The position numbers were made by a program, and so were the translations under genes. A DNA stretch of 64,000 nucleotides, taken from NCBI GenBank assembly GCA_963723855.1, contig CAVRSI010000015.1, positions 195,553-259,552 on the forward strand, written 5' to 3'. Within the stretch, counting starts at the first letter, position 1. Every line of letters starts with the position of its first letter. A model generated the notes under the pieces. It saw only the letters and a list, made by a program, of their open reading frames with translations. It was not told the origin of the DNA and searched no databases. Shown here one piece after another: positions 3,197-18,793 of this stretch. Origin of the DNA: an uncultured Actinomycetes bacterium. GTDB lineage: Bacteria > Actinomycetota > UBA4738 > HRBIN12.

Positions 3197-3900
3197 GGAA
3201 GGAACGCATCCTCGTCGTCGACGACGAGGCCCAGATCCGCAAGGCGCTGAACCGTGCCCTCGTGGCCAGGGGATACGAGGTCGAGACCGCCGTGGACGGC
3301 GAGGAGGCACTGCTCGTCGCCGAACGCTTCGCGCCGGACCTGGTCGTCCTCGACCTGAACCTCCCCGGCATCGACGGGTTCGAGGTCTGCCGGCGACTCC
3401 GGACGTGGTCGGCGACGCCCGTCATCGTGCTCTCGGTGCGGGAGGACGAGGGCGACAAGGTCGAGGCGCTCGACCTCGGGGCGGACGACTACCAGACGAA
3501 GCCGTTCGGCATCGACGAGCTGCTCGCGCGGATCCGCGCCTTGCTGCGTCGCAGCGAAGACCGGAGCGGGCAGGTCGCATCCCGATTCCACTCCGACGGC
3601 CTCGAGATCGACCTGGCGTCCCACCGGGTCGTGCGCGACGGCGAGGGTGTTCGTCTCACGAAGACGGAGTGGGCGCTGCTCGAGGCGTTCGCGACCCATC
3701 CGGGCAAGCTCCTGACCCACGGATGGCTCCTCACGCACGTGTGGGGCGAGGGGTACGCGGACGACGTGGACGTGCTCCGGGTCTTCGTGAGCCAGCTGCG
3801 GAAGAAGATCGAGCGCGAACACACGCGCCCGGCGATCATCGTGACCGAGCCGGGCGTGGGATATCGCTGGGTGCTGCGAGCCTCGCCCGCGGAAGGCTGA
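3186..3900 (+). CDS. kdpE: OmpR-family response regulator KdpE; start region disturbed (probable 1-nt insertion near 3198-3204)
   Basis: Track ORF 3262..3900 has the receiver plus winged-helix domains (DLVVLDLNLPGIDG...KPFGIDELLARIRALLRR...VGYRW). The conserved receiver N-terminus RILVVDDE (3205-3228) is in frame upstream, but no ATG/GTG/TTG precedes it. GTG 3186 or ATG 3180 lie one frame off and would read M(GV)RTEEG-RILVVDDE if one base is removed. Confidence 0.8.
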
Positions 3901-3907
3901 CCGAGAC

Positions 3908-4268
3908 CTACGACGCGAACTCGAACCGGGGGTTCACCATGCGAACCTCGCCGCGCTTGTCCCCCAGCACCCCTTCGACGATGACCTTCGTTCCCAGCGT
4001 CATCCCCTGGATCCCTCGCCGCCCCATGAACACGATGTTCGCGTCGCCGGTCCCGTCGTAGAGCAGCGCCTCGAGCGTCTCCTGCCCCTCGACGGGGAAG
4101 ACCGTGATCCGCCGAACCACGCCGGCGAGCTTCACCGGCTCCCGGAGCGGCGCTTCGGCGATGCGCGTCGTGCCCGGCACCTTCTCCGCCCAGCCGCGGA
4201 TCTCCGGCCGAAAGGCGTGCCTCGTCGCTCTCCTTCAGCCGGTCGAAGAAGCGACGGAAGACTGCCAT
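3908..4268 (-). CDS. OB-fold nucleic-acid-binding domain protein (actinobacterial type); one frame break near 4198-4212
   Basis: The N-terminus MAVFRRFFDRLKESDEARLSA (start of ORF 3489..4268) joins EIRGWAEKVPGTTRIAEAPLREPVKLAGVVRRITVFPVEG...MVNPRFEFAS (ORF 3908..4180) after a 1-nt shift. The family assignment is from memory of mycobacterial homologues. Confidence 0.6.
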
Positions 4269-4277
4269 GCTTCGGTG

Positions 4278-6543
4278 CTACGACGCTGCCATCGACGAGG
4301 CATCGGCCTGCCGGACCACGTCCTCGAGCTCGGACTTGCGCGTCTTCGAGATGTAGATCATCACGCCGAGGATGACGACGCACACGGCGGCGACCGCGAT
4401 CCGGAACGCGACGTCCGTCGGCGTGCGTGACCACGAGCGGTGCGATCAACAGCGCGACCAGGTTCATCACCTTGATCAACGGGTTCAATGCCGGGCCGGC
4501 CGTGTCCTTGAACGGGTCGCCCACCGTGTCGCCGATGACGGCGGCCTTGTGCGCGTCGCTGCCCTTGCCCCCGAAGTGCCCTTCCTCGATGTACTTCTTG
4601 GCGTTGTCCCATGCGCCGCCCGAGTTCGACAGCATCACGGCGAGCAGCTGTCCGGTGAGGATCGCGCCGGCCAGGAACGCCCCGAGCGCTTCGCCCTTCA
4701 ACAGGAAGCCGGCGATGACGGGCGAGAGCACCGCCAGCAGGCCCGGCGTCATCAGCTCACGGAGCGAGGTCTTGGTGCAGATGTCCACGACACGGCCGTA
4801 GTCCGGCTTCTCCGAGTAGTCCATGATCCCCGGGTGATCGCGGAACTGGTTCCGCACCTCGACGACGACCTGCGCCGCCGCCCGGCCGACCGCGCGGATC
4901 GCGAGCGACGAGAACAGGAACGCGACCGACCCGCCGAGCAACAGCCCCACGAGCACGTCCGGGTGGTCGACCCGGATGCCGATGAAGTTGAAGCCGGCGC
5001 CGCGCAGCGCTTCCTCGAACGAACCGAACAGCGACGTCGCCGCGATCACGGCCGTCGCGATCGCGAGCCCCTTCGTGATGGCCTTCGTGGAGTTCCCGAT
5101 GGCGTCCAGGCCGCCCAGGATCTCGGCCGGCCTGCCCTCGAACTCCCCGGACATCTCCGCGATGCCCTGCGCGTTGTCCGAGATCGGCCCGAACGTGTCC
5201 ATGGACACGACGACCCCGACCGTGGTCAGCATCCCCATGCCGGTGAGCGCGATGAAGTACAGGCGCTCGGCGTTCGAGTGACCCAGCAGGAACGCGGCCA
5301 TGATGTCCCCGGCGATCACGATGATCGACCACACGGTCGATTCGAGCCCGACGGAGAATCCCGCCAGGACCGTCGTCGCCGCCCCGGTGACGGTGGACTC
5401 CGCGATCTCCTGCACGGGCCGGTGTTTCGTATCGGTGAAGTGCTGCGTGAGCACCTGGATGATGCTCGCCAGGATCAGCCCGAACGCCACGGCGAAGCCC
5501 GGCTTCCATGAGTGCATGTAGGAGTTCGAGATCACGAACACGGCCGCGGCTGAGATGACCGCGGAGATGAAGAACCCGCGGTTGATGGCCTTCATCCCGT
5601 GCTCCTCTTCACTCCGAGGAGCCACGGCGAGGATCCCGATGATCGAGGTGATCACGCCGACCGCTCGCACGAACAGCGGGAACATCACGCCGGCGATCGC
5701 GCCGATCGACGAGCCGCTGTACGCGGCCGCGCCCAGGATCAAGGAGGCAACCAGCGTGACCTCGTAGGACTCGAACAGGTCCGCCGCCATCCCGGCGCAG
5801 TCGCCCACGTTGTCGCCCACGTTGTCGGCGATCGTCGCGGCGTTGCGCGGATCGTCCTCGGGGATCCCCTGCTCGACCTTGCCGACCAGGTCGGCGCCCA
5901 CGTCGGCCGCCTTCGTGAAGATGCCGCCTCCCACCCGCATGAACATCGCGAGCAGGGCGCCGCCGAACCCGAAGCCCACCAGGACGCTCGTGGCGTCCTG
6001 CTTGTAGATGAGCAGGATCACCGTCGCGCCGAACAGGCCGAGTCCTACCGTGAACATCCCGGCCACGCCGCCGGCGCGGAAGGCGATCCGGACCGCGCGC
6101 CGCAGGCCCGACTCACGCGCGGCGTTCGCCGTCCGGACGTTCGCCCGGACCGCGAGCCACATCCCCACGTAACCGGTCGTGGCGCTGAACACCGCGCCCA
6201 GGATGAACGCGAGCGAGCGCCCGAACTTGATCGAGAACTCGGAGTGCACGGCGTCCTTCGGTGCCGGAAGGATGAAGAACAGGATCACGGTCAGGAGGCC
6301 CAGGAAGACCGCGAGCGTCCGGAACTGGCGCGAGAGGTAGGCCTTCGCCCCCTCCTGGATCGCCTTGGCGATCTCCTTCATCTTCTCGGTGCCCTCGGGA
6401 GCTCCGAGCACCTCGCGCACCAGGTAGTAGGCGAACAGCAGGGCGATCAGCGAGACGCCCATGGTCACCCACAGGAACGTGTTTTCGAACGACCCGAATA
6501 CCGCTCGGATCGGGCCACTCTCCTGGGCCAAGACGCCGTGCAT
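4278..6543 (-). CDS. hppA: Membrane H+-translocating pyrophosphatase, K+-independent type; one frame break near 4408-4424
   Basis: ORF 4132..6582 from [10 protein letters not shown] carries typical H+-PPase blocks ([72 protein letters not shown]). [10 protein letters not shown] has Lys at the position that is Ala in K+-dependent enzymes. After LVVTHAD the track frame turns Arg-rich; the shifted frame gives a final TM helix, [44 protein letters not shown], with its stop at 4278-4280. Confidence 0.9.
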
Positions 6544-6605
6544 CGAACCTCCTCGAGATGTGTGGGAGCGTGCCTCTCTCACCCGACCGGGCCGGGAACG
6601 CGTGA

Positions 6606-6611
6606 AGTATA
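6606..6611 (-). promoter_or_regulatory. Candidate -10 box TATACT upstream of hppA, inside a 10-mer (CCTATACTTC) shared with the riboswitch at 15560
   Basis: The coding-strand sequence TTCATTGCCTATACTTCACG lies about 60 nt upstream of the hppA ATG. An identical CCTATACTTC occurs at 15566-15575. No convincing -35 was found. Confidence 0.3.
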
Positions 6612-6660
6612 GGCAATGAACTGGTCGCCGACCTGCGAGAACGGTGGCTCAGCGACAGGA

Positions 6661-7023
6661 TCAGCGGGCGATCCAGTAGCCGAGCCCGGCGACCAAGAAC
6701 GCCGGCGGGCCGGAGAGCAACAGGTTCCAGCCCACGTAGCGCCATGCCCCGTCCTCGATCAGCTGCACCGTCTCGTACGTGAAGGTCGAGAACGTGGTGA
6801 ATCCGCCGATCACGCCGGTGCCGACGAACGTGAGCCATGTCGCCGAGACGTGCCCGGCGGTCGCGGCGCCGACCAGGAGTCCCAAGGCGAAGCTCCCAAC
6901 CAGATTCACCACCAGCGTGCTCAACGGGAACGGGCTGCGTTGGCGGGGAGCGATCACTCCCTCAACCGAATACCGAAGCAGCGCGCCCAACCCGCCACCG
7001 GCGGCAACGGAAAGCGCGATCAT
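6661..7023 (-). CDS. crcB: Fluoride channel CrcB/FluC (distal copy)
   Basis: 120 aa: MIALSVAAGGGLGALLRYSV...LSTLVVNLVGSFALGLL...TGVIGGFTTFSTFTYET. This is the CrcB signature with four TM segments. It has an ATGA overlap with the upstream DUF190 gene. Confidence 0.9.
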   Translation of the reverse strand: MIALSVAAGGGLGALLRYSVEGVIAPRQRSPFPLSTLVVNLVGSFALGLLVGAATAGHVSATWLTFVGTGVIGGFTTFSTFTYETVQLIEDGAWRYVGWNLLLSGPPAFLVAGLGYWIAR

Positions 7024-7361
7024 CCGGGATGGGTTCCCCGGTAGGAACGGACCTCCACCCGTTCGACGGTCACCAGCCCGTCGCCGACCATCGGATCGAT
7101 CTCCTCGATGAACGCGTCGATACGGTCGACCGTGTCGACGATCTCGATCAACAGCGGGAGGTCCTCTGAGAGACGAAGGATGCGTGCGGTGTGCAACCGC
7201 GAGCTGGCGCCGAATCCCTCGATCCCCCGGATCACGGTCGCTCCGGCAAGCCCCCGCTCGTGTGCGAGGTGGACGATCTCCTCGTACAGGGGTTTGTGCT
7301 GCCACGTATCCGATTCCCCGATGAAGATCCGCAACAGCTTGCATTCGCCTTCGAGCTTCAT
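7020..7361 (-). CDS. DUF190 (PII-like) protein, commonly linked to crcB
   Basis: 113 aa: MKLEGECKLLRIFIGESDTWQHKPLYEEIVHLAHERGLAGATVIRGIEGFGASSRLHTARILRLSEDLPLLIEIVD. It is sandwiched between two crcB genes, with ATGA overlaps on both sides. Confidence 0.8.
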   Translation of the reverse strand: MKLEGECKLLRIFIGESDTWQHKPLYEEIVHLAHERGLAGATVIRGIEGFGASSRLHTARILRLSEDLPLLIEIVDTVDRIDAFIEEIDPMVGDGLVTVERVEVRSYRGTHPG

Positions 7362-7732
7362 CGATCCTCCCTCGGCCTCGCCGGACCGAACCGTCCGGTC
7401 CAGATCCCGTAGACCCCCGCCGCCTGACCGGCGACCAGCGTGGCGAGCCAATACACGAGCGCCGTCCGTACATGGCCCGTATCGATGAGCTTGACCCCTT
7501 CCACGGCCATCGTCGAGAAGGTCGTGTAGGCGCCGAAGAACCCGATCGCGACCAAGGGGCGCATGAATCGGGTCGGCCTGAGCCGCTCGGAAAGCAACAC
7601 GGCGACGACGCCCAGCCCGAACGCCCCGGTGACGTTGACGAAGAACGTCGCCCACGGGAACGCCCCTTGATCGCCGGCGAACGCAAGGCCGATCCGCCAT
7701 CGGGCGAGCGCTCCCACGGCGCCGCCGACCAT
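7358..7732 (-). CDS. crcB: Fluoride channel CrcB/FluC (proximal copy); an alternative GTG start at 7765
   Basis: MVGGAVGALARWRIGLAF...WATFFVNVTGAFGLGVV...IGFFGAYTTFSTMAVEG matches CrcB. Paired crcB genes suggest a heterodimeric channel. Confidence 0.85.
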   Translation of the reverse strand: MVGGAVGALARWRIGLAFAGDQGAFPWATFFVNVTGAFGLGVVAVLLSERLRPTRFMRPLVAIGFFGAYTTFSTMAVEGVKLIDTGHVRTALVYWLATLVAGQAAGVYGIWTGRFGPARPREDR

Positions 7733-7829
7733 GACCGCCGCGGTCCGTGCATGCGAAGGCTTCACGATCGCCGAGCGTCTCAGACGGCCAGGTTCCATCG
7801 AGGCGATGCACCGATCGTGGCGCCTGTTC

Positions 7830-8366
7830 TCAAAGCTCGTCTCGCTTGCGGAAGAAGGCGACCGCAGCACGCCGCCGGCTCTCGTTCGAGACGTACTGAG
7901 GACGTTCGTAGGCGTCGACCGCAAGCGTCCCTTGCCAGTCGATGAACGGCTCGATGGTCGAGTGGTCGATCCCAGCCGCAGCCGCCTCTTCCTCGAGCCG
8001 ACGCAATTCGGTCCGCAAGCGTTGCGCCTCCAACTTCAGGAGCGGCACGATATCTCGGTCGAGCTTGATATACGCCAGGAACGCTTCGCGCTCAGCCTCC
8101 TCGGACACCGCGAACCGCGCACGGTTGGTCACGAGCAGGATGCGCAGCTCCGCAACTGACGCGGCGGATGCGGCGCACCGGATCCTCAGACCTTCGATCC
8201 TGGAACGACCGGTGTCACCGCTTCCGCTGAACGCGGGATCATCCTCAGCCACGATGCGGACCCCTCTGTCGCACGCTTCCGCGATCAACGCCTCCTGGGA
8301 AAGCTCCGGGCGTACCGCCTTCGCGCGGTCAAGATCGGCCTTGAAGATCCTCATGGGCTCGCTCAC
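7830..8366 (-). CDS. Hypothetical protein (178 aa from GTG 8366, or 174 aa from ATG 8354), second gene behind riboswitch A
   Basis: Clean ORF: (VSEP)MRIFKADLDRAKAVRPELSQEALIAEACDRGVRIVAEDD...LKLEAQRLRTELRRLEEEAAAAG...FFRKRDEL. GTG 8364-8366 overlaps the stop of the upstream gene (GTGA). I recognise no family. Confidence 0.6.
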   Translation of the reverse strand: MSEPMRIFKADLDRAKAVRPELSQEALIAEACDRGVRIVAEDDPAFSGSGDTGRSRIEGLRIRCAASAASVAELRILLVTNRARFAVSEEAEREAFLAYIKLDRDIVPLLKLEAQRLRTELRRLEEEAAAAGIDHSTIEPFIDWQGTLAVDAYERPQYVSNESRRRAAVAFFRKRDEL

Positions 8367-8830
8367 GTACTGCCCTCGCCGATCGCAGCGCGAAGGGCGA
8401 CGATCCGGGCTCGGTACGCGTCGATATCCCGTTGCAGACGGGGGAGCATCCAATCGACGGTCTGCTCGATCTCTCTTCGATACATCCGCGTGGACAATTC
8501 GCGCTTGCGGGTTTCCTTCGAACCATCGAACCAGGCGTAGCGGGTCACTGGGATCAGGGACTCCACAGATCTCACCACGTTCTCCAGGCGGTCGAGACGC
8601 TCTTCGTCCGTCGGGAGGCTGCTTAGCTCAGCCTCCACGACGATGTCGAAAAGGCCGGCTTCCAGGATGAACCGTCGCTCGGACGTGTCGATCGGCATGG
8701 CGGGCGACTCGGGCTCGGCGACGTCGATGAACTCCTCGGCGACGTATTCGTAGTCCAGGTCGCGCACCATCGGACGTAACGATCCGAGGTCGGGAGTGGG
8801 TCGCTTGAGCGAGTGATCCGATCCGGTCAT
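8363..8830 (-). CDS. Hypothetical acidic protein (155 aa), first gene behind riboswitch A
   Basis: ORF: MTGSDHSLKRPTPDLGSLRPMVRDLDYEYVAEEFIDVAEPES...RMYRREIEQTVDWMLPRLQRDIDAYRARIVALRAAIGEGST. The ATG lies only 2 nt after the GGAGG of the riboswitch platform, so the start could instead be the internal Met at 8770. I recognise no family. Confidence 0.6.
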   Translation of the reverse strand: MTGSDHSLKRPTPDLGSLRPMVRDLDYEYVAEEFIDVAEPESPAMPIDTSERRFILEAGLFDIVVEAELSSLPTDEERLDRLENVVRSVESLIPVTRYAWFDGSKETRKRELSTRMYRREIEQTVDWMLPRLQRDIDAYRARIVALRAAIGEGST

Positions 8831-8898
8831 GGCCTCCTACCTCGATCCGGTAGGAGCCATCAGCTCAGCGTGAGCGGGTTCGGCGAGCTCCATCGCCC
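8831..8898 (-). promoter_or_regulatory. Fluoride riboswitch (crcB motif), copy A: aptamer 8849-8898 plus an SD-sequestering helix
   Basis: Minus-strand RNA: GGGCGAUGGAGCUCGCCGAACCCGCUCACGCUGAGCUGAUGGCUCCUACC-GGAUCGA-GGUAGGAGGCC-AUG. Elements are P1 GGCG/CGCC, loop GAUGGAGCU, an AAC linker, P3 GCUCA/UGAGC, CUGAU, and a 3' GCUCC complementary to the loop GGAGC (pseudoknot), then CCUAC. CUCCUACC pairs with GGUAGGAG and masks the SD. A TAAGAT -10-like box is at 8910-8915. Confidence 0.8.
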
Positions 8899-8968
8899 TT
8901 CGACATCACATCTTAAGCCCTCAACCGGTTCGGCGCGTCCGTTCCGAGCTCGGTGTCAGCGGCATGAT

Positions 8969-10491
8969 CTACTGCCCGAGGTCAGTGGCCGTCCGCCCTT
9001 CGGTGTCCCGGGCGGTATCGAAGATGCGCCAGTAGGCGTCCTCGCCGAAGCTGGTTGGCAATGGTTCACCTTCGATGAGTCGGAACGTGCGCCGACCGTC
9101 GGGCTGCCGTTCGGCGCGAAGGAAGTAGGCAGTGTCCAGCTGCTGGATGTAGAAGCCGTGCGCGAGGTCGAACAGGTGCGTGACGAAGAAGACCTTGACG
9201 CCGGCATCTATCGATGCGCGGACGACTTGCCGGGCGATCTCGGAGCCCTCTCGCTCGTTCGTTGCCGAGAACGACTCGTTGCACAGCAAGAGGGAGTTCG
9301 GCGTGATCATGTCGGCGAGGTCGCTCATCCTCCCGAGCTCTTCGTCCAGCTTGCCGCTCTGCATCGTGACGTCTTCTCCTCGTTTGAAGTGCGTGAAGAC
9401 ACCGGTACAGACGTTGGCGCTGAAGGACTCCGCACCGACGAACATCCCGCTCTGCATCATCAGTTGCGCCGATCCGACGCTGCGCAGGAACGTCGACTTG
9501 CCGCCCTGGTTGGCGCCGGTGATCATGACGAGCAGCTTGCTCGCCGCTGTGACGTCATTGCCGACGACATCGTTCGCCACGCTCAGCGCCAGACAAACGT
9601 CGTACATCCGTCGAGCGGTGAGCGACGGGCGATCCTCAACGATGGGCATCGGGAAGGACGTCGGCTCTCCCTTCGCCGTCAGGCGTTCGTGCACATTCAC
9701 GCAGCCGATGTAGAAGCCGGTTTCCGCCCGCAACAGATCGAAGAAGCTGCGGATGTAATCGGCGGACTGAGCGAGCACGTTGGCAACCTGGTTGATCCTT
9801 TCGCTCGCAGGTCGCCCAGCGCCCTCGCCCCGCTCTCGTCGCGATCCGCGATCTGGAAGCTGAGGCCGGACCTGCCCCTGCGAGTGATCCGCTGCCTCCA
9901 GCTCAGCGTGGGGAGCGTCCGCAGCACGTAGTGGACGCCCTTGTTGCCCCTCCCGAGCTCGGCACTCATCAAGACGCCGCGCTCGAACCGCAACTCCTCG
10001 AGACGATCCTCGATGGTTCGGAAGTACGCGTCGTCCAGCTCCTCCGCGAGCATCGCGAAGAAACGCACGAAGCCATCGGACCGGAACCCTCCGGCGTGAT
10101 CGTCCGCGAGCCTGCGAAGCTGCCTGAGCGAACCCACGAACACCTCCATGGACTGGAGCGATCGCGTGAGGACGGCTTGCGGGGACATGAACGCGCCCCA
10201 GATCTTCTTCTCTTCCATGATCGCGCCGGCGGCGACCTGATAGATCTGTCTGACGACGGACGGTCGCTCCAGGCAGTCGGTCAGCACGTGCTGCCGGTAG
10301 ATGATCGCCTCCGGGCTCGTCAGGCTCGTCAGAACGGCCTTCCTCGCCACGTCGAACAGGAACGGGTCACCGGCCGCCATCGCGTTGAAGAGGATGTTCA
10401 GCTCGAGGTCTTGGGTGAGCGATCCTTCGTTCGACGGGAGTTCGCGCTGGAGGTCGAAGTCATCGTCCTCGTACATCAGGAAAGCCTTCAT
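8969..10491 (-). CDS. MutS-related ABC-type ATPase B (MutS domains III/V only); one frame break near 9796-9800
   Basis: The N-terminal half is ORF 9697..10491 (MKAFLMYEDDDFDLQRELPSNEGSLTQDLELNILFNAMAAGDPFLF...). The C-terminal half is ORF 8969..9778 (Walker A ITGANQGGKSTFLRSVG, LLLCNESFSATNEREG, Walker B/signature region). The two join as ...LRAKG-INQVANVLAQSADYIRSFF. There is no mismatch-binding domain I and no Smr/nuclease domain. Confidence 0.8.
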
Positions 10492-12020
10492 CGCACGTAT
10501 CCGCCTCCGCAGCGTCTCGTACGTAGGCCGTACTTCTCGGCGATGGCAGCGGCATAGGCAAGTCCGTCTGCGGGCTTCCTGGTGATCTTAACGTTCGCGT
10601 CGCGGGGTCATCGGGCACGACCGCGCTCACCATGCTGACCGTGACCTCGCTGAGGGAGGACAGCTCGTCCATGAAGGTCACGCACACGCACAACGAGTGC
10701 AACGCGATCAACCGATCCGTCACTTCCGTGCCGAGGAACACGGCGTCACGAAGCGAGGTCGAGTTGAAGCTCTCGTTCATGATGACGACGCTGTCGCTGG
10801 TCGCCAGGCGGAGGATTCGTGGAAGCTACCAGTTCATCCTCGAGCTTTCCGCGGAGGGTCGCGAGGTTCTCTTCCCGTTCGAAATGCGCGAAGACGTGAT
10901 CGGGCAGGGAGAGGTGCGCTGCCTTCGCAGGAACGAGACAACCGAGGTTGGCGAGATGATGCAGCTGGCCGAACATCCGTGCGAACGTCGTCTTCCCGCC
11001 TTGGTTCGGACCGGTAACGACGATGACGCGTTCCGGCTCCGTGAGATCGAACGAGTTGCACACGACCTCCGAACCCTGCGGGACGAGCTTGTTGGCGAGC
11101 GCGAGATCGAACGCATCGTGTGCGAACACGTGCTTCGCGCGAACGGACACGTGCGGGTAGCAGAACGGCAATCCGGCCGATCGGAACCGCTTGGCGTGCT
11201 CGAGATATGCCAGGTAGAACTGCACCTCCCGATCGAAGGTGCCGATGATCTGATCGAGGTAGTCACGGTGACGCACGCGATACTCGTCCAGCGCTCGCGA
11301 GACGTCGGGATACAGCTGTGCCACCAACTCGAACACGCGAGCTTCAACGGGATCCATGTCCAGCGAAGCAGTGAGTTTGACCCGGTGATCCCCCACGGCG
11401 CCGTGCTTGAACTTCGCGAACGTCTCCACGACCTCTGCGCTGAAGTCAGGCTCTCCCTCGTACCTGCTGACCGTGACCCGGTTCCCAGCGATGTGAACGC
11501 AGTACTTCACCGAAGCCAAGGCGTCCTTCAGCTCACGCGTTGCCGATATGAGTGACGTGAACGTCACGGACGCGGTGTAGTCCAGGATGTAGTCGCGGAA
11601 CGCCCGCAGGCCACGTGATGTCAATCCGAGAGATGCGAACCCTTCAGCCAGCGATCGAACCGCGTCGCAGTAGACCTCCACCGCCTCAACGAACCAACGC
11701 TTCTTCTGCGATGTGTAGTAGAGCTTCTCCACCTGAGCGAGATGCGCGCGCATCTCCTGCATGCGTCGCGAGAAGGCCTGGATGGCTTCCATGACCGCGC
11801 CATCCTCGAGGTCACGGAATACCTCATGCCGGTAGTACACGGCTTCGACGTCGCGCAACGGCGTGTAGAAGAAGGGCTTCAGTTGGTACTCGTCGCGACC
11901 GGCCGTTATCGACTCCACCACCTGATCGAGATTCAGGTCGCGGAAGAACCCGGGCTCTTCGAGCTCGTCGATCACGACGCTGCTCGGAGGCTGGTCGAAG
12001 AGGACGCTGTGGAACCGCAC
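10488..12020 (-). CDS. MutS-related ABC-type ATPase A (MutS domains III/V only); at least two frame breaks (10586-10594, 10818-10832); start revised to GTG 12020 (or 12032)
   Basis: ORF 10746..12164 contains (V)RFHSVLFDQPP...PGFFRDLNLDQVVESI and Walker A VTGPNQGGKTTFARMFG. It continues in ORF 10460..10780 (VIMNESFNSTSLRDA...VCVTFMDEL) and then in a third frame (KITRKPADGLAYAAAIAEKYGL...). The stop TGA 10488-10490 overlaps the ATG of ATPase B. The first 44-48 codons of the track ORF are occupied by riboswitch C and its leader. Confidence 0.75.
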
Positions 12021-12153
12021 GTCCCGACGCACCGGAGAGCCGTTCGGGTTCCGGAGCCTGCCGAGCTCCTGGGTCCCTCCGCCGGTGAAGGATCCTCGCT
12101 CGCTCGTGATACGCCTCCTTCCGCTGACGTCCGAAGCGCCCCGAGGGGCAGCC

Positions 12154-12202
12154 GTAGAAGCCATCAGCGTCGGAAGACGCGGTTCAGGCGAGCTTCATCG
12201 CC
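12154..12202 (-). promoter_or_regulatory. Fluoride riboswitch (crcB motif), copy C, aptamer; leader extends to about 12021
   Basis: Minus-strand RNA: GGCGAUGAAGCUCGCCUGAACCGCGUCUUCCGACGCUGAUGGCUUCUAC. Elements are P1 GGCG/CGCC, P3 GCGUC/GACGC, and loop GAAGC paired with 3' GCUUC. That pseudoknot carries a compensated double change relative to GGAGC/GCUCC in copies A and B. A TAACAT -10-like box lies at 12209-12214, 6 nt upstream. An SD-like GGAAGGAGG near 12114-12122 has no canonical start after it. The first in-frame GUGs are at 12032 and 12020. Confidence 0.75.
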
Positions 12203-12247
12203 ACCCCGATGTTAGCCCAGGAGGCGACGGACGGATGGCCTCGACCG

Positions 12248-12874
12248 CTATCCGTCTGACGTCGATCCCGCGAGCAGGCCGATGATGCGTCGCGCCGCGA
12301 GCGAGCGTTGTTCCGGGTCGTTGGCCGAGACTCGGGCGCGCGCGCTGAGCGCGAGGAGGGAGCGACGCTGCGTCGCGATGAGGAACCGCAGAGTGGACCG
12401 ACCGGGGCGAGTCCGACCGCCATGCTGAGATGCGGCCGGCAGATGCCGGTCGACACCTGATAGGCGGCGAGCACGTCGGGCTCGGCGAGCGCGTCGAAGA
12501 GCATCCCGAGCACCGACCGCCCTCGACGTTCTACCGCCGCGCATACGGGACACGCAGGTGGCCCCTCGGCCACACCCGCTCCGAAGTCCTCCGAGGCGGC
12601 CTGAGCAGATCCGCGAAAGGAGCCGCGCGCCCGCCGCCCCCAGATCCCCTCCTCGTCGGTCGAACACGCTCGCCCAGTGGGGCGCACAGAGTCCGCGGGA
12701 GTCGACGGTCTTGTCAATCGTCTCCTCTTCCCGGATGTTCGTGGTCGCGAGCCACGACAGGACCGCCCGTTCGGTCTCCCCCGCCAGCCGGCAGACGGGA
12801 CATCCGTCGCTACGAAGTGCGAGACCGAGCTCGGCCTCGAGGAGAATCTCGCGGAGAGGTTTCCGCTTCGTCAC
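12248..12874 (-). CDS. Hypothetical protein with two CPVC motifs (putative zinc-binding); two frame breaks (12398-12408, 12599-12614)
   Basis: Reconstructed from ORFs 12248..13243 and 12184..12717: VTKRKPLREILLEAELGLALRSDGCPVCRLAGETERAVLSWLATTNIREEETIDKTVDSRGLCAPHW...ARLLSRI / AQAASEDFGAGVAEGPPACPVCAAVERRGRSVLGMLFDALAEPDVLAAYQVSTGICRPHLSMAVGLAPV / RSTLRFLIATQRRSLLALSARARVSANDPEQRSLAARRIIGLLAGSTSDG. Its GTG start overlaps the phosphatase stop (GTGA). Confidence 0.55.
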   Translation of the reverse strand: MTKRKPLREILLEAELGLALRSDGCPVCRLAGETERAVLSWLATTNIREEETIDKTVDSRGLCAPHWASVFDRRGGDLGAAGARLLSRICSGRLGGLRSGCGRGATCVSRMRGGRTSRAVGARDALRRARRARRARRLSGVDRHLPAASQHGGRTRPGRSTLRFLIATQRRSLLALSARARVSANDPEQRSLAARRIIGLLAGSTSDG

Positions 12875-13504
12875 ATGCGCAGGGAGTCTTGTGCTCGACC
12901 TGCCTGTCGGAACAGGTCTTCGAGGACGGTCGGCACCTGCAGCCCTTCGTCGGTCGCCCGCAGCTCGATCACGGAGCCCGGCGACACGTCCGGGTCCCAA
13001 AACGCCGTTCCTTCGAGCCCCTTCAGACGCACGAGCACCAGCCGGATGAGGAGCTCGTGCGTGACCACGGCCACCGCTCGTTCGGGGTGCCGACCGCCTA
13101 TCGACTCCAGGGCCCTGAATGCACGTCGCTCGGCGGCCGCCATGCTCTCTCCGGAGGGGAAGGTCGCCGCCGCCGGGAACCGGAAGTAGAAGTCGAACGC
13201 TCTCGGCTCCGACTCCCTGATCGAGCGGCGTGCGAGCCACCACGAGCCCACGTCGACATCGGTCAGATCACTTCGATCGGCGTGGAACCACACCGACGGA
13301 ACGCCCGATGACGTCGGCGGTCTCCCGGGCGCGACGCCGGGGACTGGTGTAGATCGCGGAGACGTCCTCGAGAGCCAGACGCTCCGCCGCGCGCCGCGCA
13401 TCGTCCACGCCTTGCGCGGTCAGCGGGTCGTCCGTCTGTCCTTGCAGCCGACCTTCACTACTGAGAGCGGTCCGACCGGCTCGCACCACGAACAACGATG
13501 TCAT
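12871..13504 (-). CDS. Histidine-phosphatase (phosphoglycerate-mutase-like) fold protein with RAG in place of the catalytic RHG; one frame break near 13289-13306
   Basis: N-terminus from ORF 13268..13633: MTSLFVVRAGRTALSSEGRLQGQTDDPLTAQGVDDARRAAERLA...IYTSPRRRARETADVIG. C-terminus from ORF 12871..13401: VWFHADRSDLTDVDVGSWW...FRFPAAATFPSGESM...VAVVTHELLIRLVL. The codons read CGA GCC GGT, that is R-A-G. Confidence 0.7.
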
Positions 13505-13701
13505 CGGGAGCTCCCCCCATGTATGGCTTCCGCCGACGGCACATCCGGTGCGGTACGGATCGACATCGCCACGTGATCCCAGTCGATGCGGAGCAGCTCG
13601 ACCGGTCTGACGCGCGGGACGAACCGATTCCAATCCACGTCGACATCTTCGATCCGTCGCTCGCGCAGCGCAGGCGTCAGGTGCGGATAGGCGGAGGTCA
13701 T
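13501..13701 (-). CDS. Possible separate 66-aa ORF between the dynamin-like and phosphatase genes
   Basis: MTSAYPHLTPALRERRIEDVDVDWNRFVPRVRPVELLRIDWDHVAMSIRTAPDVPSAEAIHGGSSR. GGAGG lies 4 nt upstream of the ATG at 13699-13701. As sequenced it is in frame with the dynamin ORF. Removing one C from the C5 run at about 13712-13716 would end the dynamin gene with an ATGA overlap onto this ATG. Confidence 0.35.
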   Translation of the reverse strand: MTSAYPHLTPALRERRIEDVDVDWNRFVPRVRPVELLRIDWDHVAMSIRTAPDVPSAEAIHGGSSR

Positions 13702-15483
13702 GGCGCCTCCATCACCACCATGACGGGGGCCGGTCGCGGCCGTTTGGAACGCCTCACGGAGCTGGTCGAGCCGGCGTCGATCGACCCGCGCATCTTCCTT
13801 GGCTCGCAGGGCGTCTTCGGCCGACCGCTGCCGATCGCGTTCGGAGCGTTCGAATCCCCGCACCGAGGCTCTCGATGGTCGCTTCCAGGCTCCGGTCCAA
13901 TGCCGATCCAAGGTCACGGCGACTCCGGTCGAGCCGCTGCACGAAGTCCCAGTGAAGGCGTCCCATGTGCTTGTCGACGAGCGAAGGAGTCGCTCCCTCA
14001 AGGTCGCGCAGGAACAGGCGCCGCGCCGTCTCTCGCGGCAGGAACCGGCGAACGTCCGGCAGGATCGACTCGATGATCGATGGAGGTTCGAAGAAGCTGA
14101 AACTGAACGGGGTCCGGAAGACAGCTCGACGAGATGGCCCTCGGAAACGAGCTGGATCCCGAGGATCTCGCCGCACAGCCGGACGGTCTCCCGCTCGGTA
14201 CCGTCCGCCTCCTCGACGAAACGGGCCGTTGCGTCCCGGAACGCGGCGGAGAGCGTCTGCTCCTCGAGTCCGCGCCAGTGGCCGATATCGGTGCGGAGCG
14301 CCTCCCTCAAGAACACGAACCCCTCGTCGTCCCGCGCGATGCGCCGGACGTCCTCAAGCGAGGCAACGTGTTCCTCGACGGCAGACGTCAGGCGGGTCTC
14401 CTCCTCGGAACGAAGCTGTTCCAGATCCTGCTCGAGACGGGACACGAGCGCCTCGGCCTCCTGATCGAGAAGAGCGTGCATGTCGCGTTGTCTCGATCGA
14501 GCCTGGGCGAATACCTCCTGCATGCGCCGACGAGCCTCTTCCAGCTCCTGGACGGGGAGATCGAGCGCCCGCTCCTGCACCTCCAGCGCGTTGCGCTCGT
14601 CGTCCACCAGCCGCAGCGCACGCCCGGCCACGGAGGCCAGGATGGCCCGCCCTTTCTCGTCCAGCAGGAACGTCCGGAAATCACGTTCGAACGCGGGGAG
14701 CCCCGAAGCCTCCAACTCGCGGTCGTCTCCGGCGAGCTTCGCCCGGAGCGCCCGGCGGGCGCTCAAGGGATAGACAACGACGTCCTGCCCGACGGCTTCT
14801 TCGATAACCCGATGTGTGAACGCGATGGACTCGTCACGGTCGAGCCCCGACAGGTAGTCGATCTTGTTCAGGACGAAGAAGAGACGCGCCGTCTCCCCGC
14901 GAACTCCTCGAGGAACGCACGCTCCGTCTCGGAGAATTGGCGGGTCCGCAGAGGTGAGGAAGACGGCGGCGTCGGATTCGGAGAGGAAGGCGCGCGCCGC
15001 CTCGGTGTTGCGCTGGTAAACGCTGCCGACGCCGGGCGTATCGACTAGGAACACCCCGTCACGCAGATCTTCCGACGGGTACGACACCACGGCCCTCGCG
15101 ACCCCCAGCGCATTGTCCGGGTTGCCTCGCTCGGTCACGTACGTAGCGAGATCCGTCACGTCGACGTCCTCTTCGCGGCCGTCGAGATAGCCGATCCGAG
15201 CTCGGATCTCCCTCCCCCACGTCACCGCCGTGACGATCGAGGTGAGTGGCACGACGGCGGAAGGAAGCACGTCTGCGCCGAGGAGTGCATCCACGAACGT
15301 GGTCTTGCCCCGTTTGAACTCGCCGAAGACCACGACGTTGAATCGGTTCTCGACGAGCTTCTTGTCGAGGGCCCGTGCAGCGTCTGTGACGGCCCGGCTC
15401 TCGCGTCGGTCGGCGAACTCGGCGAGATCGTCGAGCGCCACGAGAAGCCTGTCCCGCTCCTCCGCGTAGGTTCGTTGACCCAT
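13699..15483 (-). CDS. Bacterial dynamin-like GTPase (BDLP family); four frame breaks inferred (13855-13862, 14125-14140, and a compensating pair at 14893-14900 / 14932-14938); 3' end uncertain
   Basis: ORF 13501..15483 has G1 VVVFGEFKRGKTTFVDALLG, G3 FLVDTPGVGS and G4 FFVLNKIDYL, followed by long coiled-coil-like stalk sequence. The middle of the C-terminal part is in ORF 13754..14176 (FRTPFSFSFFEPPSIIESILPDVRRFLPRETARRLFLRDLEGATPSLVDKHMGRLHWDFVQRLDRS...). It is the first gene after riboswitch B. Confidence 0.8.
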
Positions 15484-15560
15484 GGAAAAGCTCCTACCTC
15501 TGCATCCAGGTAGGAGCTATCAGCTCGCCGGGGCGAGCGGTTAGGCGAGCTCCATCGCCT
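15484..15560 (-). promoter_or_regulatory. Fluoride riboswitch (crcB motif), copy B: aptamer 15509-15560 plus an SD-sequestering, terminator-like helix at 15484-15520
   Basis: Minus-strand RNA: AGGCGAUGGAGCUCGCCUAACCGCUCGCCCCGGCGAGCUGAUAGCUCCUACC-UGGAUGCAG-AGGUAGGAGC-UUUUCC-AUG. Elements are P1 GGCG/CGCC, loop GAUGGAGCU, an AAC linker, P3 GCUCGC/GCGAGC, CUGAU, and a 3' AGCUCC complementary to the loop GGAGCU, then CCUAC. GCUCCUACCU pairs perfectly (10 bp) with AGGUAGGAGC and masks the SD AGGAG. A TATACT -10-like box lies at 15568-15573, 7 nt upstream. Confidence 0.85.
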
Positions 15561-15649
15561 CACCCGAAGTATAGGGGAGCGGAGGAGCGAACCTTCCCAA
15601 GGATCGCCAACGACGATGGTCGACTCTCCCCGCTCCGTAAACTCGCAGG

Positions 15650-16922
15650 ATGAGCTATCAGATCGATTCGATACGTGCGCTGGAGAGTCCTGGATTCCCG
15701 AGGCAGACCGACGCTGCACGTGACCCTGGGACTCGTCGGAGGCGCGATCGGGACGGCCGGCGTGCCATCCGGCGCGTCGACCGGGACCCGCGAGGCCGTC
15801 GAGAGGCGGGACGGCGACCAGGAGCGGTTCGAAGGCGCGGGCGTCCAGCGGGCCGTCATGACCGTCGAAGGGGAGATCGCGGACGCCGTGACCGGCCGCG
15901 ACTGGGAGTCTCTGGCGGAACTCGATCATGCCCTGATCGGGTTGGACGCAACGCCTAACAAGGAACGGCTCGGCGCGAACGCCATCGTCGGTGTCTCCAT
16001 GGCGGCGGCTCGCGCGATGGCGGCGGCCGACGAGCGTCCGCTCTACGAGTGGCTGGCTCCGTCGGGATACGCGCCACGTCTTCCCGTCCCGCACTTCAAC
16101 GTCATCAACGGCGGGGCGCACGCCGGCAACCAGCTCGCGTTCCAGGAGTTCATGATCGCGCCGATCGGCGCGCCGAGTTTCCGCGAAGCGCTGCGGGCCG
16201 GCGCTGAGACCTACGCCATGCTCCGGCACGGACTGAAGGAGGCCGGCTACGCGACCGGTCTGGGCGATGAAGGCGGCTTCGCTCCGGAGATCTCGGAGCC
16301 GGAGGAGGCGTTGGACCTCCTCGTCGAGGCCATCCGGGCCGCCGGATACGAACCCGGCCGGGACTCGGTCGCGATCGCGCTCGATCCAGCGGCGTCGGGC
16401 TTCCGTGCGGAAGACGGCATGTACGAGGTGACCGAGGCACGGCTGACCTCGGCGGAGATGACCGAGCGCTACGCGCAGATGGTGGACCGCTATCCGGTGT
16501 GGTCGATCGAGGACGGGCTCGCGGAAGACGATCCGGAAGGGTGGACCGAGTTGACCCAACGCCTCGGCGACCGGATACAGATCATCGGGGACGATAATTT
16601 CGTCACGAACCCGGGCCTCATACGGGAGGCCATCGCGCATGGCATCGGCAACGCTGCGCTCATCAAGCTGAACCAGATCGGGACCGTCACGGAAACCCTC
16701 GAAGCGATCGAGGTCAGCCGATCGGGCGGGTACGCGCAGATGATCTCGCACCGGTCCGGAGAGACATGCGATCCATTCATCGCCGACCTGGCGGTCGCCG
16801 TGGGCTGTGGCCAGATCAAGTCCGGGGCCCCGGCTCGAGGCGAGCGACTCGCGAAGTACAACCGCCTTCTCGAGATCGAGCTGGGGCTGGACCGTCCGAC
16901 GTTCGGCCTCGTACCCAAGTGA
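15650..16922 (+). CDS. eno: Enolase, divergent copy (SHRSGETCD instead of SHRSGETED); one extra base near 15683-15687
   Basis: ORF 15675..16922 has VLDSRGRPTL, VPSGASTGTREA, GDEGGFAP, LIKLNQIGTVTET, SHRSGETCDPFIADLAV and RGERLAKYNRLLEIE. The canonical N-terminus MSYQIDSIRALE is in ORF 15650..15958, one frame off. It joins as ...IRALE-VLDSRG. Confidence 0.9.
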
Positions 16923-17413
16923 GCTTCGAAGGGTCCGCGCTTTGGCGCGTCCGGCAGAAGATCGGGCACGACCTCCTGCTGTGGCCGGGCGCGACCGTGC
17001 TCCTGGAAGACGCGGACGGACGGATCCTCCTGGGTCTGCGGCGCGACAACGACGAGTGGACGATGCCCGGAGGCGGTGCCGAGGAAGGCGGGAGCTTCGC
17101 CGCGACGGCGCTCGACGAGTTGCGGGAAGAGGTGGGGCTCGAGGCCGACGCAGCGGACCTGGTCGCGTTCGCATGCGTCTCGGAGTCCGCCGACCACCTG
17201 ATCCCGTACCCGAACGGAGACCTCACCCACTACTTCGGCATCTGGTTCGTGCTCCGCCGGTGGCGGGGCGAGCCGGAGGCCGATGGCGACGAGCTCGTCG
17301 AGCTCGGGTGGTTCTCCCGCGACGCGCTCCCCGAGCCGTTGATGCACAGCTCGGCCGTGGCGCTCCGGCACTACACGGCGTACCTGGAGTCAGGCGTCTT
17401 CCAGATCGGCTGA
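16919..17413 (+). CDS. NUDIX hydrolase
   Basis: The Nudix box is GGGAEEGGSFAATALDELREEVGL. Its GTG start overlaps the eno stop (GTGA at 16919-16922). Confidence 0.75.
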   Translation: MSFEGSALWRVRQKIGHDLLLWPGATVLLEDADGRILLGLRRDNDEWTMPGGGAEEGGSFAATALDELREEVGLEADAADLVAFACVSESADHLIPYPNGDLTHYFGIWFVLRRWRGEPEADGDELVELGWFSRDALPEPLMHSSAVALRHYTAYLESGVFQIG

Positions 17414-18793
17414 GGGTGGTGACTCGGCGGCCTCGACGGGCCTGGTCCCCGATGTGCGGCGCAACCATACGAAACCGATAGGTCCCGCCAGGATCGCCGT
17501 CAGCAGGATCCCGATCTTCGCTTGCTCGACCGCTCCGGGCTGCCCGACGAAGGCCACATCAGCCACGAACAACGAAACCGTGAACGCGACGCCAGCGGCC
17601 GCGGCCACGGCGAATATGCTTCCGAGTCGTGCCCCGTCGGGTAGCCGCCCGATCCCGAGCCGAACCGTGAGCCACACCCCTCCCCCGATCCCCACGATCT
17701 TTCCCACCACGTGGCCGCTCACCACCCCAAGCGTCACCGGACTCCTGAGCGCATCGGCGACCGCATCGACGGATAGTGGTATGCCCGCGTTCGCCAACGC
17801 GAACAGCGGAAGCACCACGATCGTCGCCATAGGGAGGAGCAGGTGCTCCATCCTTGCGAGCGGCGACACAGCCTCTTTCGAGAGCCAAGCGAGCTGCAAC
17901 CACCAACGCGCATCGGCGTCGGGCGGGTCGGGTTCGTCAACGGTCTCATCGGCGACACGGATCGCTTCCTCGCGCACGTGGCGGGGTCGCTGGAGCGGGA
18001 ATGCCGGCGTGAGCAGCCCCACCACCACGCCCGCGAGGGCAGGCTCCACGCCCGAGGCATCGAGCGACAACCACATCGCCACTCCCAACGCCGCGAAGAT
18101 CGCCATCGAACGAACGCCGAGACGTCGGATCAGCACCATCGCGCCGGCCACGCCGATCGCCAGCAGGAGTGCTGGGAACCGGATGAGGGACGGATAGAAC
18201 ACCGCGATCACGACGACGGTGAGGATGTCGTCCACGATCGCCAGCGTGAGCACGAAGGCCCGAAGGCCGACCGGAGCGTTCCGGATGGCGAGCGCGAGGA
18301 TCCCCAGCGTGAACGCGATATCGGTCGGCATCGCGATCCCCCACCCCCGCGAACCAGCCCCGCCTCTGTTCACGAGCAGATAGATCAGAGCGGGCACGAC
18401 CATCCCTGCGACCGCAGCGATGACGGGGAGCGCTGCCGCGCGCACATCCCGCAGTTCACCGATCAATACCTCGCGCTTGATCTCCAGCCCGACGACGAGG
18501 AAGAAGAACGACATCAATCCGTCGTTCACCCACGCTCGCAGGCTGTCGTTGACTGTCCAGCTGCCCACGCCGAGAGAGATCGGGGTGCGCCATAGCCGCA
18601 CGTAGCTTTCGGCGAGCGGCGAGTTCGCCCATACCAATGCAACGACCGCCGCGGCGACGAGCAGGATCCCGCCTGACGTCGAGGACTCGAGGAACTCCTG
18701 AAGTGGGCGCACGACGCGGCGCGGCACAGCACGGTTCGACTGCGCCCACGAGGGCCGGATCGCGGGGCCGGGTCTGGGGGTGTCGTTCGCCAT
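17390..18793 (-). CDS. nhaA: Na+/H+ antiporter NhaA (copy 1)
   Basis: 467 aa with ...LVWANSPLAESYVRLW...NDGLMSFFFLVVGLEIKREVLIGEL...VPALIYLLVN...AIVDDI..., typical NhaA. Confidence 0.85.
   Translation of the reverse strand: MANDTPRPGPAIRPSWAQSNRAVPRRVVRPLQEFLESSTSGGILLVAAAVVALVWANSPLAESYVRLWRTPISLGVGSWTVNDSLRAWVNDGLMSFFFLVVGLEIKREVLIGELRDVRAAALPVIAAVAGMVVPALIYLLVNRGGAGSRGWGIAMPTDIAFTLGILALAIRNAPVGLRAFVLTLAIVDDILTVVVIAVFYPSLIRFPALLLAIGVAGAMVLIRRLGVRSMAIFAALGVAMWLSLDASGVEPALAGVVVGLLTPAFPLQRPRHVREEAIRVADETVDEPDPPDADARWWLQLAWLSKEAVSPLARMEHLLLPMATIVVLPLFALANAGIPLSVDAVADALRSPVTLGVVSGHVVGKIVGIGGGVWLTVRLGIGRLPDGARLGSIFAVAAAAGVAFTVSLFVADVAFVGQPGAVEQAKIGILLTAILAGPIGFVWLRRTSGTRPVEAAESPPSADLEDA

Follow-up and report, generated by a model that had tools for sequence, protein, structure and literature searches.

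A fluoride riboswitch leader upstream of a MutS-like ATPase gene pair in an uncultured actinobacterium, with a predicted translational platform and a candidate ACG start

Fluoride riboswitches (crcB-motif RNAs) stand at three places on the minus strand of a 64,000-nucleotide stretch of contig CAVRSI010000015.1 (hereafter the window) from an uncultured Actinomycetes bacterium. The subject of this report is the third of them, which precedes a pair of genes for MutS-like ATPases and which was first pointed out in an earlier reading of the sequence (the original prediction). The element is almost certainly a genuine fluoride riboswitch. New here is a modelled expression platform, which the original prediction had left open: without the ligand, the 5' half of the aptamer is predicted to pair with the leader downstream of it and to bury a very strong Shine-Dalgarno (SD) sequence. 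Such a translational, SD-sequestering platform is likely, and that the element works as a functional riboswitch by means of it is, taken as a whole, reasonably likely. Directly behind the SD there is a conserved ACG where the ancestral AUG stood, and this is the only point beyond the routine that might surprise.

The aptamer and its predicted expression platform

A cmscan search of the whole window against Rfam 15 at gathering thresholds gave three copies of RF01734, the fluoride riboswitch family, and no fourth copy was found in a permissive E-value scan of positions 1-24000 (Table 1). A covariance search was the test named in the original prediction, and the copy at 12148-12211 aligns with the model at full length (model positions 1-64) with 45.2 bits, above the gathering score of 34 (E = 2.6e-9). 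The minus strand at 12154-12202 reads GGCGAUGAAGCUCGCCUGAACCGCGUCUUCCGACGCUGAUGGCUUCUAC, exactly as in the original prediction, which had taken this sequence for a complete aptamer and not for coding sequence. All invariant positions of the model are kept (GGCGAUG..G..CGCC, AACCGC, GCUGAUG.CU.CUAC), the P1 strands GGCG/CGCC and the P3 strands GCGU(C)/(G)ACGC, the latter as previously proposed, lie on the paired columns of the model, and no non-canonical pairs were flagged. The copy is the lowest-scoring of the three because two pseudoknot positions differ from the model, namely G to A in the P1 loop and C to U in the 3' tail; the two are paired with each other, and a paired change of this kind earns no credit in the covariance model. 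In comparison with the RF01734 class there is nothing distinct in the aptamer itself, which is situated in a 5' leader and has fluoride-related neighbour genes.

Relatives were collected by scanning one genome per species, whereby 598 stretches from many phyla were found to encode MutS-like relatives, and 80 loci were fetched (L numbers below denote loci). Judged from the relatives, the window would come from an Actinomycetota lineage resembling Thermoleophilia/Solirubrobacterales. The orthologous aptamers, at the position equivalent to that of the window's third copy, reach 50.6 bits (L001) and 45.9 bits (L002). In the pseudoknot of the third copy one G-C pair is replaced by A-U, GAAGC:GCUUC standing against GGAGC:GCUCC in the other two copies of the window. 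The change is compensatory, as was originally pointed out, and is real evidence for RNA structure, yet it is the norm in this gene neighbourhood and not a special variant. Among 53 distinct aptamers from all fetched loci around homologous genes, GAAGC/GCUUC is the commonest type (14), followed by GAGGC/GCCUC (11), GAGGC/GCUUC (10) and GGAGC/GCUCC (6); nine sequence variants occur and all five pairs are kept in 50 of the 53 aptamers. L001 carries a fourth fluoride aptamer with a long P3 insertion (12693-12769, minus strand, 44.9 bits), and back-to-back aptamers on opposite strands, approximately 45-260 nucleotides (nt) apart and heading divergent operons, are found in L061 (3818-3958), L051 (3598-3890), L033 (3410-3768) and L025 (3510-3704).

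The putative promoter is represented by a -10-like hexamer upstream of the aptamer, and with it goes the presumed start of transcription. Hexamers of the type TANNNT occupy the equivalent place in L002 (TAACAT), L001 and L087 (both TACCAT) and L084 (TACGCT); a sigma-70 consensus scan at the leader locus did not find a full promoter.

The leader has a derived layout common to the window, L002, L001, L087 and L084-86, in which the aptamer is followed by an inserted hairpin (H1), a linker, the strong SD and the start position; the leader type is described by the sequence pattern GGAAGGAGGCGN{4}ACGNNCGAGC. H1 is predicted in all these lineages with differing sequences, for example GGCCGCGGG/CUCGUGGCC in L084. 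When the segments of 113-117 nt from the aptamer to the start were folded, one long hairpin was common to all four lineages folded (window, L002, L001 and L084), with z-scores of -2.36, -4.33, -2.88 and -1.95. Its three main pairings are all present in the RNAalifold consensus: GCUCGCCUG with (A)CG-N-GCGAGC, GCGUCUUC with GGAGGCGU, and CGCUGAUG with CGUCAGCG. The first of them, which in the window joins GCUCGCCUG to CGAGCGAGC (RNAalifold columns 10-18 with 101-109, and also in the minimum free energy folds), puts the initiation-codon region inside the ligand-free helix. In the second, the P3 5' strand and loop (12180-12173) can pair with 12118-12111.

The long hairpin and the aptamer fold are mutually exclusive, and therefore fluoride binding should free the SD. 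The computed probability that the SD is unpaired rises once the aptamer is folded away, in the window from 0.02 in the free fold to 0.36 and in L002 from 0.00 to 0.41; for L084 the partition function lends the switch weak support. No intrinsic terminator (stem and U-run) was found in 11900-12400.

We propose that the riboswitch heads a transcription unit of its own, consisting of MutS-like ATPase gene 1 and the overlapping gene 2. In the absence of fluoride the 5' half of the aptamer would pair in three blocks with the downstream sequence, forming one long hairpin that would bury the SD GGAAGGAGG and the initiation region, the CGAGCGAGC block taking in the final two initiation-codon bases together with what follows them. 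Once fluoride binds, in complex with Mg2+, the aptamer would be locked by P1, P3 and the GAAGC:GCUUC pseudoknot, the SD would be set free and ribosomes could load. If ribosomes initiate just 3' of the SD, on the near-cognate codon ACG 12107 or on AUC 12110 beside it, the protein would gain an unconstrained N-terminal extension of approximately 30 residues before RFHSVLF; the weak codon would hold expression down, and translational coupling would carry it on to gene 2.

Three observations weigh against this picture. The rise in SD accessibility was not reproduced in L001 and L087, and the fold of the whole 216-nt leader is no more stable than that of shuffled sequences (z = -0.38), an uninformative value; significance is confined to the segment from the aptamer to the start. 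Covariation is also thin: RNAalifold counts three pairs with substitutions in both strands, of which H1 has two and the SD helix one, and since the conserved aptamer supplies one strand of the long helix, few of its pairs vary. Support for the platform is thus moderate and not strong. A second hairpin, GGAGC-UCGGCAG-GCUCC, had been noticed in the leader and is indeed present at 12069-12053, but it was rejected as a conserved platform element, being absent in L001 and deleted in L087.

In the usual actinobacterial design the pseudoknot tail is followed by a hairpin CUUCUACCG-loop-CCGGUGGAAG whose 3' arm is the SD, and the start codon comes 2-8 nt further on (L007, L061, L075, L036, L030, L022 and L005). 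The other two copies of the window follow it, with CUCCUACC...GGUAGGAGGCC-AUG at 8830 and GGUAGGAGCUUUUCC-AUG at 15483. In such translational copies (those two, L007, L061 and L075) the 3' tail of the pseudoknot, CUCCUACC, pairs directly with GGUAGGAG in a hairpin of 8-9 bp located 2-8 nt before the AUG. ON logic is known for the fluoride riboswitch class; it would be common to the usual copies and to the third one, as would the competition of an aptamer strand with the SD. The third copy, L001, L002, L087 and L084-86 differ from the usual copies in the extra hairpin inserted and in that the SD and start region pairs with the P3 5' and P1 3' strands, and the start position is ACG in the window, L001, L002 and L087 instead of AUG. 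In the Chloroflexota relatives L016, L039, L059 and L070 the tail hairpin and a U-run make a terminator. Terminators overlap many crcB RNAs (Weinberg et al., 2010, Genome Biol 11:R31; PMC2864571), whereas the copy at 12148-12211 has the predicted SD-sequestering design in place of one.

Table 1. Features of the leader, of the MutS-like gene pair and of the surrounding genes in the window.
Feature	Position	Strand	Remarks
Fluoride aptamer, third copy	12148..12211; conserved core 12202-12154	-	RF01734
P1 helix	12202-12199 with 12190-12187	-	GGCG with CGCC
P3 helix	12180-12176 with 12171-12167	-	GCGUC with GACGC
Pseudoknot, P1 loop with 3' tail	12196-12192 with 12161-12157	-	GAAGC with GCUUC; 5 Watson-Crick pairs
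Candidate -10-like hexamer TAACAT (TANNNT)	12209..12214	-	putative; the aptamer's first G lies 6 nt downstream
Hairpin H1 (GGCUGCCCC UCGG GGGCGCU-type)	12135..12153	-	immediately follows the aptamer; predicted to cap the long ligand-free hairpin
Anti-aptamer strand CGUCAGCG	12122..12129	-	complements CGCUGAUG (12169-12162, P3 3' strand and CUGAUG); in minimum free energy and consensus folds
SD GGAAGGAGG	12114..12122	-	identical in L001, L002 and L087
Candidate near-cognate start codons	12105..12110	-	AUC 12110-12108, ACG 12107-12105; each shares the frame of the MutS-like ORF
CGAGCGAGC	12098..12106	-	complements P1 3' strand and junction GCUCGCCUG (12193-12185)
In-frame low-complexity stretch (SERGSFTGGGTQELGRLRNPNGSPVRRD)	12021..12104	-	N-terminal extension or untranslated leader; holds hairpin 12069-12053 and GTG 12032
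GTG start of the public gene call	12018..12020	-	MRFHSVLF...; P0001
ORF of the longest-ORF track	10746..12164	-	begins MASTAAPRGASDVSG
MutS-like ATPase gene 1	10488..12020	-	unit behind the 12211 aptamer; Pfam MutS_V; intact homologues 511 aa
MutS-like ATPase gene 2	8969..10491	-	same unit, overlapping gene 1; Pfam MutS_V; tblastn with the L001 orthologue
Fluoride riboswitch copy	8844-8906	-	RF01734, 52.6 bits; heads unit of 155-aa and 177-aa proteins, CrcB, DUF190, CrcB, H+-pyrophosphatase
155-aa protein	8363-8830	-	no Pfam or NCBIfam match; with the next, first genes behind the strongest aptamer
Protein of approximately 177 aa	7830-8366	-	no Pfam or NCBIfam match
H+-pyrophosphatase	4132-6582	-
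Fluoride riboswitch copy	15504-15568	-	RF01734, 49.0 bits
Dynamin-like GTPase	13501-15483	-	unit behind the 15568 aptamer
Histidine phosphatase	12871-13633	-	same unit
DUF6062	12248-12868	-	same unit
Enolase	15675-16922	+	divergent
NhaA-like Na+/H+ antiporter ORF	17390-18793	-	beyond enolase; assigned from sequence only

ORF, open reading frame; aa, amino acids.

Candidate starts of the first MutS-like gene

The SD-like GGAAGGAGG at 12122-12114, already noted in the original prediction, pairs with the anti-SD at -15.3 to -16.7 kcal/mol, compared with a mean of -5.0 and a minimum of -14.7 for 20-mers sampled from the gene body, and it surpasses the SDs that precede the other two switched genes. 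Next come CGU-AUC-ACG (AUC at a spacing of +3 and ACG at +6) and then 81 nt with no ATG, GTG or TTG in any frame, so that, as previously stated, none precedes GTG 12032. At the homologous position L084-86 have GGAGG-UGGG-AUG GGC GAG C, the AUG being in frame and 30 codons before the conserved motif, and in a MAFFT alignment the ACG at 12107-12105 falls on this AUG (ATGGGCGAGC vs ACGGGCGAGC in L001). ACG is found in all four independent assemblies of the clade (window, L002, L001 and L087) and AUC in the window and L002 only. A sequencing error in the leader, which the original prediction had considered, is unlikely because ACG occurs in four independent assemblies, with the SD and the spacer also shared by L001, L002 and L087. 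The frame from ACG to RFHS is open in the window, L002, L001, L087 and L084-86 (90, 90, 102, 39 and 90 nt, respectively) and has survived three or more indel events, one of them a deletion of 63 nt in L087. The GC content at third codon positions is 0.83 in the extension frame and 0.79 in the gene.

These observations point to initiation at ACG or AUC, a reading that we hold tentatively and that falls just short of probable. There is much to be set against it. Substitutions in the extension are distributed 5/4/5 over the three codon positions, as opposed to 28/27/70 in the gene, and the chance probability of frame preservation over approximately three indels is about 0.04, with few lineages to count. 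The extension appears to evolve like unconstrained sequence, purifying selection is not seen, and the pattern is compatible with translation as well as with its absence. Furthermore, the proteins P0008, P0038 and P0044 start M/V-T-x-x-V-R-F/S-H-S, four codons before the V(R-F/S-H-S) of the motif, which speaks for a start near RFHS in some members of the clade. The AUU of infC is a near-cognate start codon in bacteria; we know of no established natural ACG start codon in them. As with the infC codon and the ACG and AUC of Hecht et al., the window has a strong SD and, 3-6 nt on, a codon one base away from AUG. Initiation at ACG is weak, however: in Escherichia coli it reaches approximately 0.1-1% of that at AUG, yielding Met-initiated protein, and AUC approximately 1-2% (Hecht et al., bioRxiv 10.1101/063800).

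The best surviving alternative accepts the riboswitch as genuine and places the start at GTG 12020 (or 12032) behind an untranslated leader of 130 nt, the ancestral AUG having been lost by change to ACG and control being exerted in some other way, for instance through termination by Rho, through RNase cutting the long ligand-free helix or through ribosomes standing by on an SD that lacks a start. Initiation at one of these GTG codons is in itself quite possible, while the alternative in full, with its lost start and its other route of control, is somewhat doubtful. GTG 12020 is the start of the public call P0001, most homologues begin at (M/V/L)RFHSILF, and GGAC-GTG is kept in L001 and L088 as well as in the window; in L006 and L090 the RFHS position, far downstream of the aptamer, has a strong SD and a start of its own, and codon-position bias is lacking in the extension. 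Nevertheless, the SD at GTG 12020 is within the background (-8.1 kcal/mol), that at GTG 12032 reaches -3.3, and the downstream GTG codons of relatives have values of -2.6 in L087 and -3.2 and -8.6 in L001, with essentially no SD at -2.6 and -3.2. In L002 the position of 12020 is ATA, and no other canonical in-frame start precedes the conserved motif. Nor, as stated, was an intrinsic terminator found in 11900-12400. A GTG start also leaves unexplained the constant preservation of the frame and the identity of the 9-nt SD, the spacer and the ACG across lineages at 67% protein identity, in which the rest of the leader has diverged or been deleted. The untranslated leader of approximately 130 nt with a GTG 12020 start, as originally proposed, is doubtful on these grounds: where the window has ACG 12107, an in-frame AUG stands in a sister lineage, the sole strong SD is the one at ACG, and the frame is kept in five lineages. 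As for the ACG or AUC start under riboswitch control, it is possible, if less than probable, that the riboswitch gates a naturally fixed ACG start with a 9-nt SD in an actinobacterial clade, so that the MutS-like pair would be made at a trickle even with fluoride.

Starts differ considerably among the relatives. The distance from the SD-proximal start to the (R)F(H/Q)SILF motif ranges from 0 to approximately 36 codons (L013, L034, L036 and L051), and a subfamily of 541 aa has a conserved extension of 30 residues starting at GGUGGAAGCUG-AUG (L092). In L033, L089 and L090-91, on the other hand, a short upstream ORF begins at the SD-proximal start. Such ORFs, for example M(M)TR(R/C)D..., are located at 3768-4001 in L033, at 1373-1500 in L089, in the leaders of L090 and L091, and in L083; the stop of the one in L033 overlaps the MutS-like start (GUGAUGA). 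All of these may be leader-peptide or coupling designs. In L088 (770-870; P0008, a close relative) deletion has removed the DUF6062 gene and the 5' portion of the aptamer; what survives of the latter is a degenerate GCGAUGACUUCCUC, after which GGUAGGAG-CC-GUG stands in frame. L093 (1165-1260; P0119) has no ATG, GTG or TTG after GGUGGAAG and shows CUGACC where relatives have CUGAUG; its sole in-frame canonical codon is a GUG inside the SD-like block.

Gene models and sequence quality

MutS-like gene 1 contains five single-base indels at approximately 10498-10827 relative to L002 (90% nucleotide identity), no homopolymer being involved in any of the five, and the protein remains similar throughout the frame segments (tblastn matches in different frames). 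Further frame breaks, across which protein similarity likewise persists, are present in MutS-like gene 2 (approximately 9800-9860), in the histidine phosphatase gene and in the dynamin-like GTPase gene (approximately 13280 and 14110). Judged from the sequence, the clustered indels look like local assembly error rather than decay, and the model of gene 1 needs repair at its 3' end, not at the 5' end alone.

These breaks, the ACG in place of AUG and the loss of the L088 aptamer by deletion could also be taken to mean that the locus is decaying, with MutS-like pseudogenes, a lost start codon and a riboswitch relic devoid of present function. This is very unlikely: the aptamer keeps every invariant position of its model, the ACG leader precedes intact genes of 511-579 aa and 502-503 aa in L001 and L087, indels confined to 330 nt, where nucleotide identity is 90% and every frame segment encodes conserved protein sequence, are the pattern of assembly error, and similar breaks occur in L002.

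The remaining question of the 5' end concerns the longest-ORF track, which begins gene 1 at ATG 12164 with MASTAAPRG.... The ATG is the AUG within the CUGAUGG that is invariant in the aptamer, an SD is lacking in front of it (-1.0 kcal/mol), and the aptamer AUG of L001 and L002 either lies in another frame than the gene or runs into stops. The original prediction had called this start spurious and the gene model in need of revision; both hold for the longest-ORF track, whereas the deposited product P0001 (NCBI/ENA, on a contig of 277,711 bp; 424 aa, MRFHSVLF...) already has GTG 12020 as its start. The N-termini of homologues likewise agree with what was anticipated, since most of the 120 best are 509-512 aa long and begin (M/V/L)RFHSILF. 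That the riboswitch match is a coincidence and the protein truly starts at ATG 12164, and would contain MASTAAPRGASDVSGR, can be dismissed in spite of the open frame from 12164 and of proteins (P0119, P0053 and P0003) that begin MAST... or contain GDEARLN...ADGFY, for the covariance-model E-value alone is 2.6e-9 and such N-termini are translated aptamers (GAUGGCUUCUAC giving M-A-S-T and GGCGAUGAAGCUCGCCUGAAC giving GDEARLN). ATG 12164 was consequently rejected as a start.

P0003 starts with MGVGDEARLNRALGADGFY, which is GGCGAUGAAGCUCGCCUGAAC...GCUGAUGGCUUCUAC translated, and P0119 and P0053 start with MAST. Longest-ORF tracks and some public gene calls thus translate through fluoride aptamers, and the resulting peptide signatures MAST... 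and GDEARLN...ADGFY can be used as flags for false N-termini in high-GC genomes. The 'SADGASA' N-terminus of the 541-aa subfamily was also considered as a translated aptamer and rejected, L092 having no aptamer there and a normal GGUGGAAGCUG-AUG start.

The fluoride island and the MutS-like pair

The three aptamers head three consecutive minus-strand units (Table 1). The 155-aa and approximately 177-aa proteins have orthologues in L001 and L002 that are 76% identical, and the gene order and the three aptamers of the island (4132-18793) are common to the window, L001 and L002. By this comparison the three separately switched operons appear to form one conserved fluoride island. We know of no functional link of dynamin-family GTPases, histidine phosphatases or DUF6062 proteins to fluoride. 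Elsewhere in the window, a sub-threshold match to a glutamine riboswitch (3157-3210, plus strand; 24.3 bits vs a gathering score of 35, E = 0.27) is probably due to chance.

The stop of MutS-like gene 1 overlaps the ATG of gene 2 (10491), and overlapping gene pairs are also present in L001, L087, L089 and L090. Both proteins have MutS domain V only (Pfam MutS_V). In the NCBIfam equivalog test MutS-like proteins failed as MutS1 (65.9 bits vs 641.7, mutS1) and as MutS2 (43.3 bits vs 400, mutS2), domain V alone being aligned although these models span the mismatch-binding, connector, core/clamp and ATPase domains, and sequence matches in the PDB cover only residues 286-507 approximately. By a simple pattern, an aptamer lies directly upstream of the MutS-like gene in 20 of the 80 fetched loci, belonging to several phyla. 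The crcB motif was described in the 5' untranslated regions of 'DNA repair (mutS)' genes, among others, by Weinberg et al. (2010; PMC2864571); the association of the RNA with a mutS-type gene has accordingly been known since 2010, and the window adds one case to it, with the difference that neither downstream protein is orthologous to MutS1 or MutS2. No functional study of a fluoride-linked MutS-like ATPase pair was found in the literature searched.

If initiation does take place at the ACG, the leader would represent a conserved natural bacterial ACG start under riboswitch control, and it would offer a clean and testable case of near-cognate initiation setting the level of expression in bacteria.

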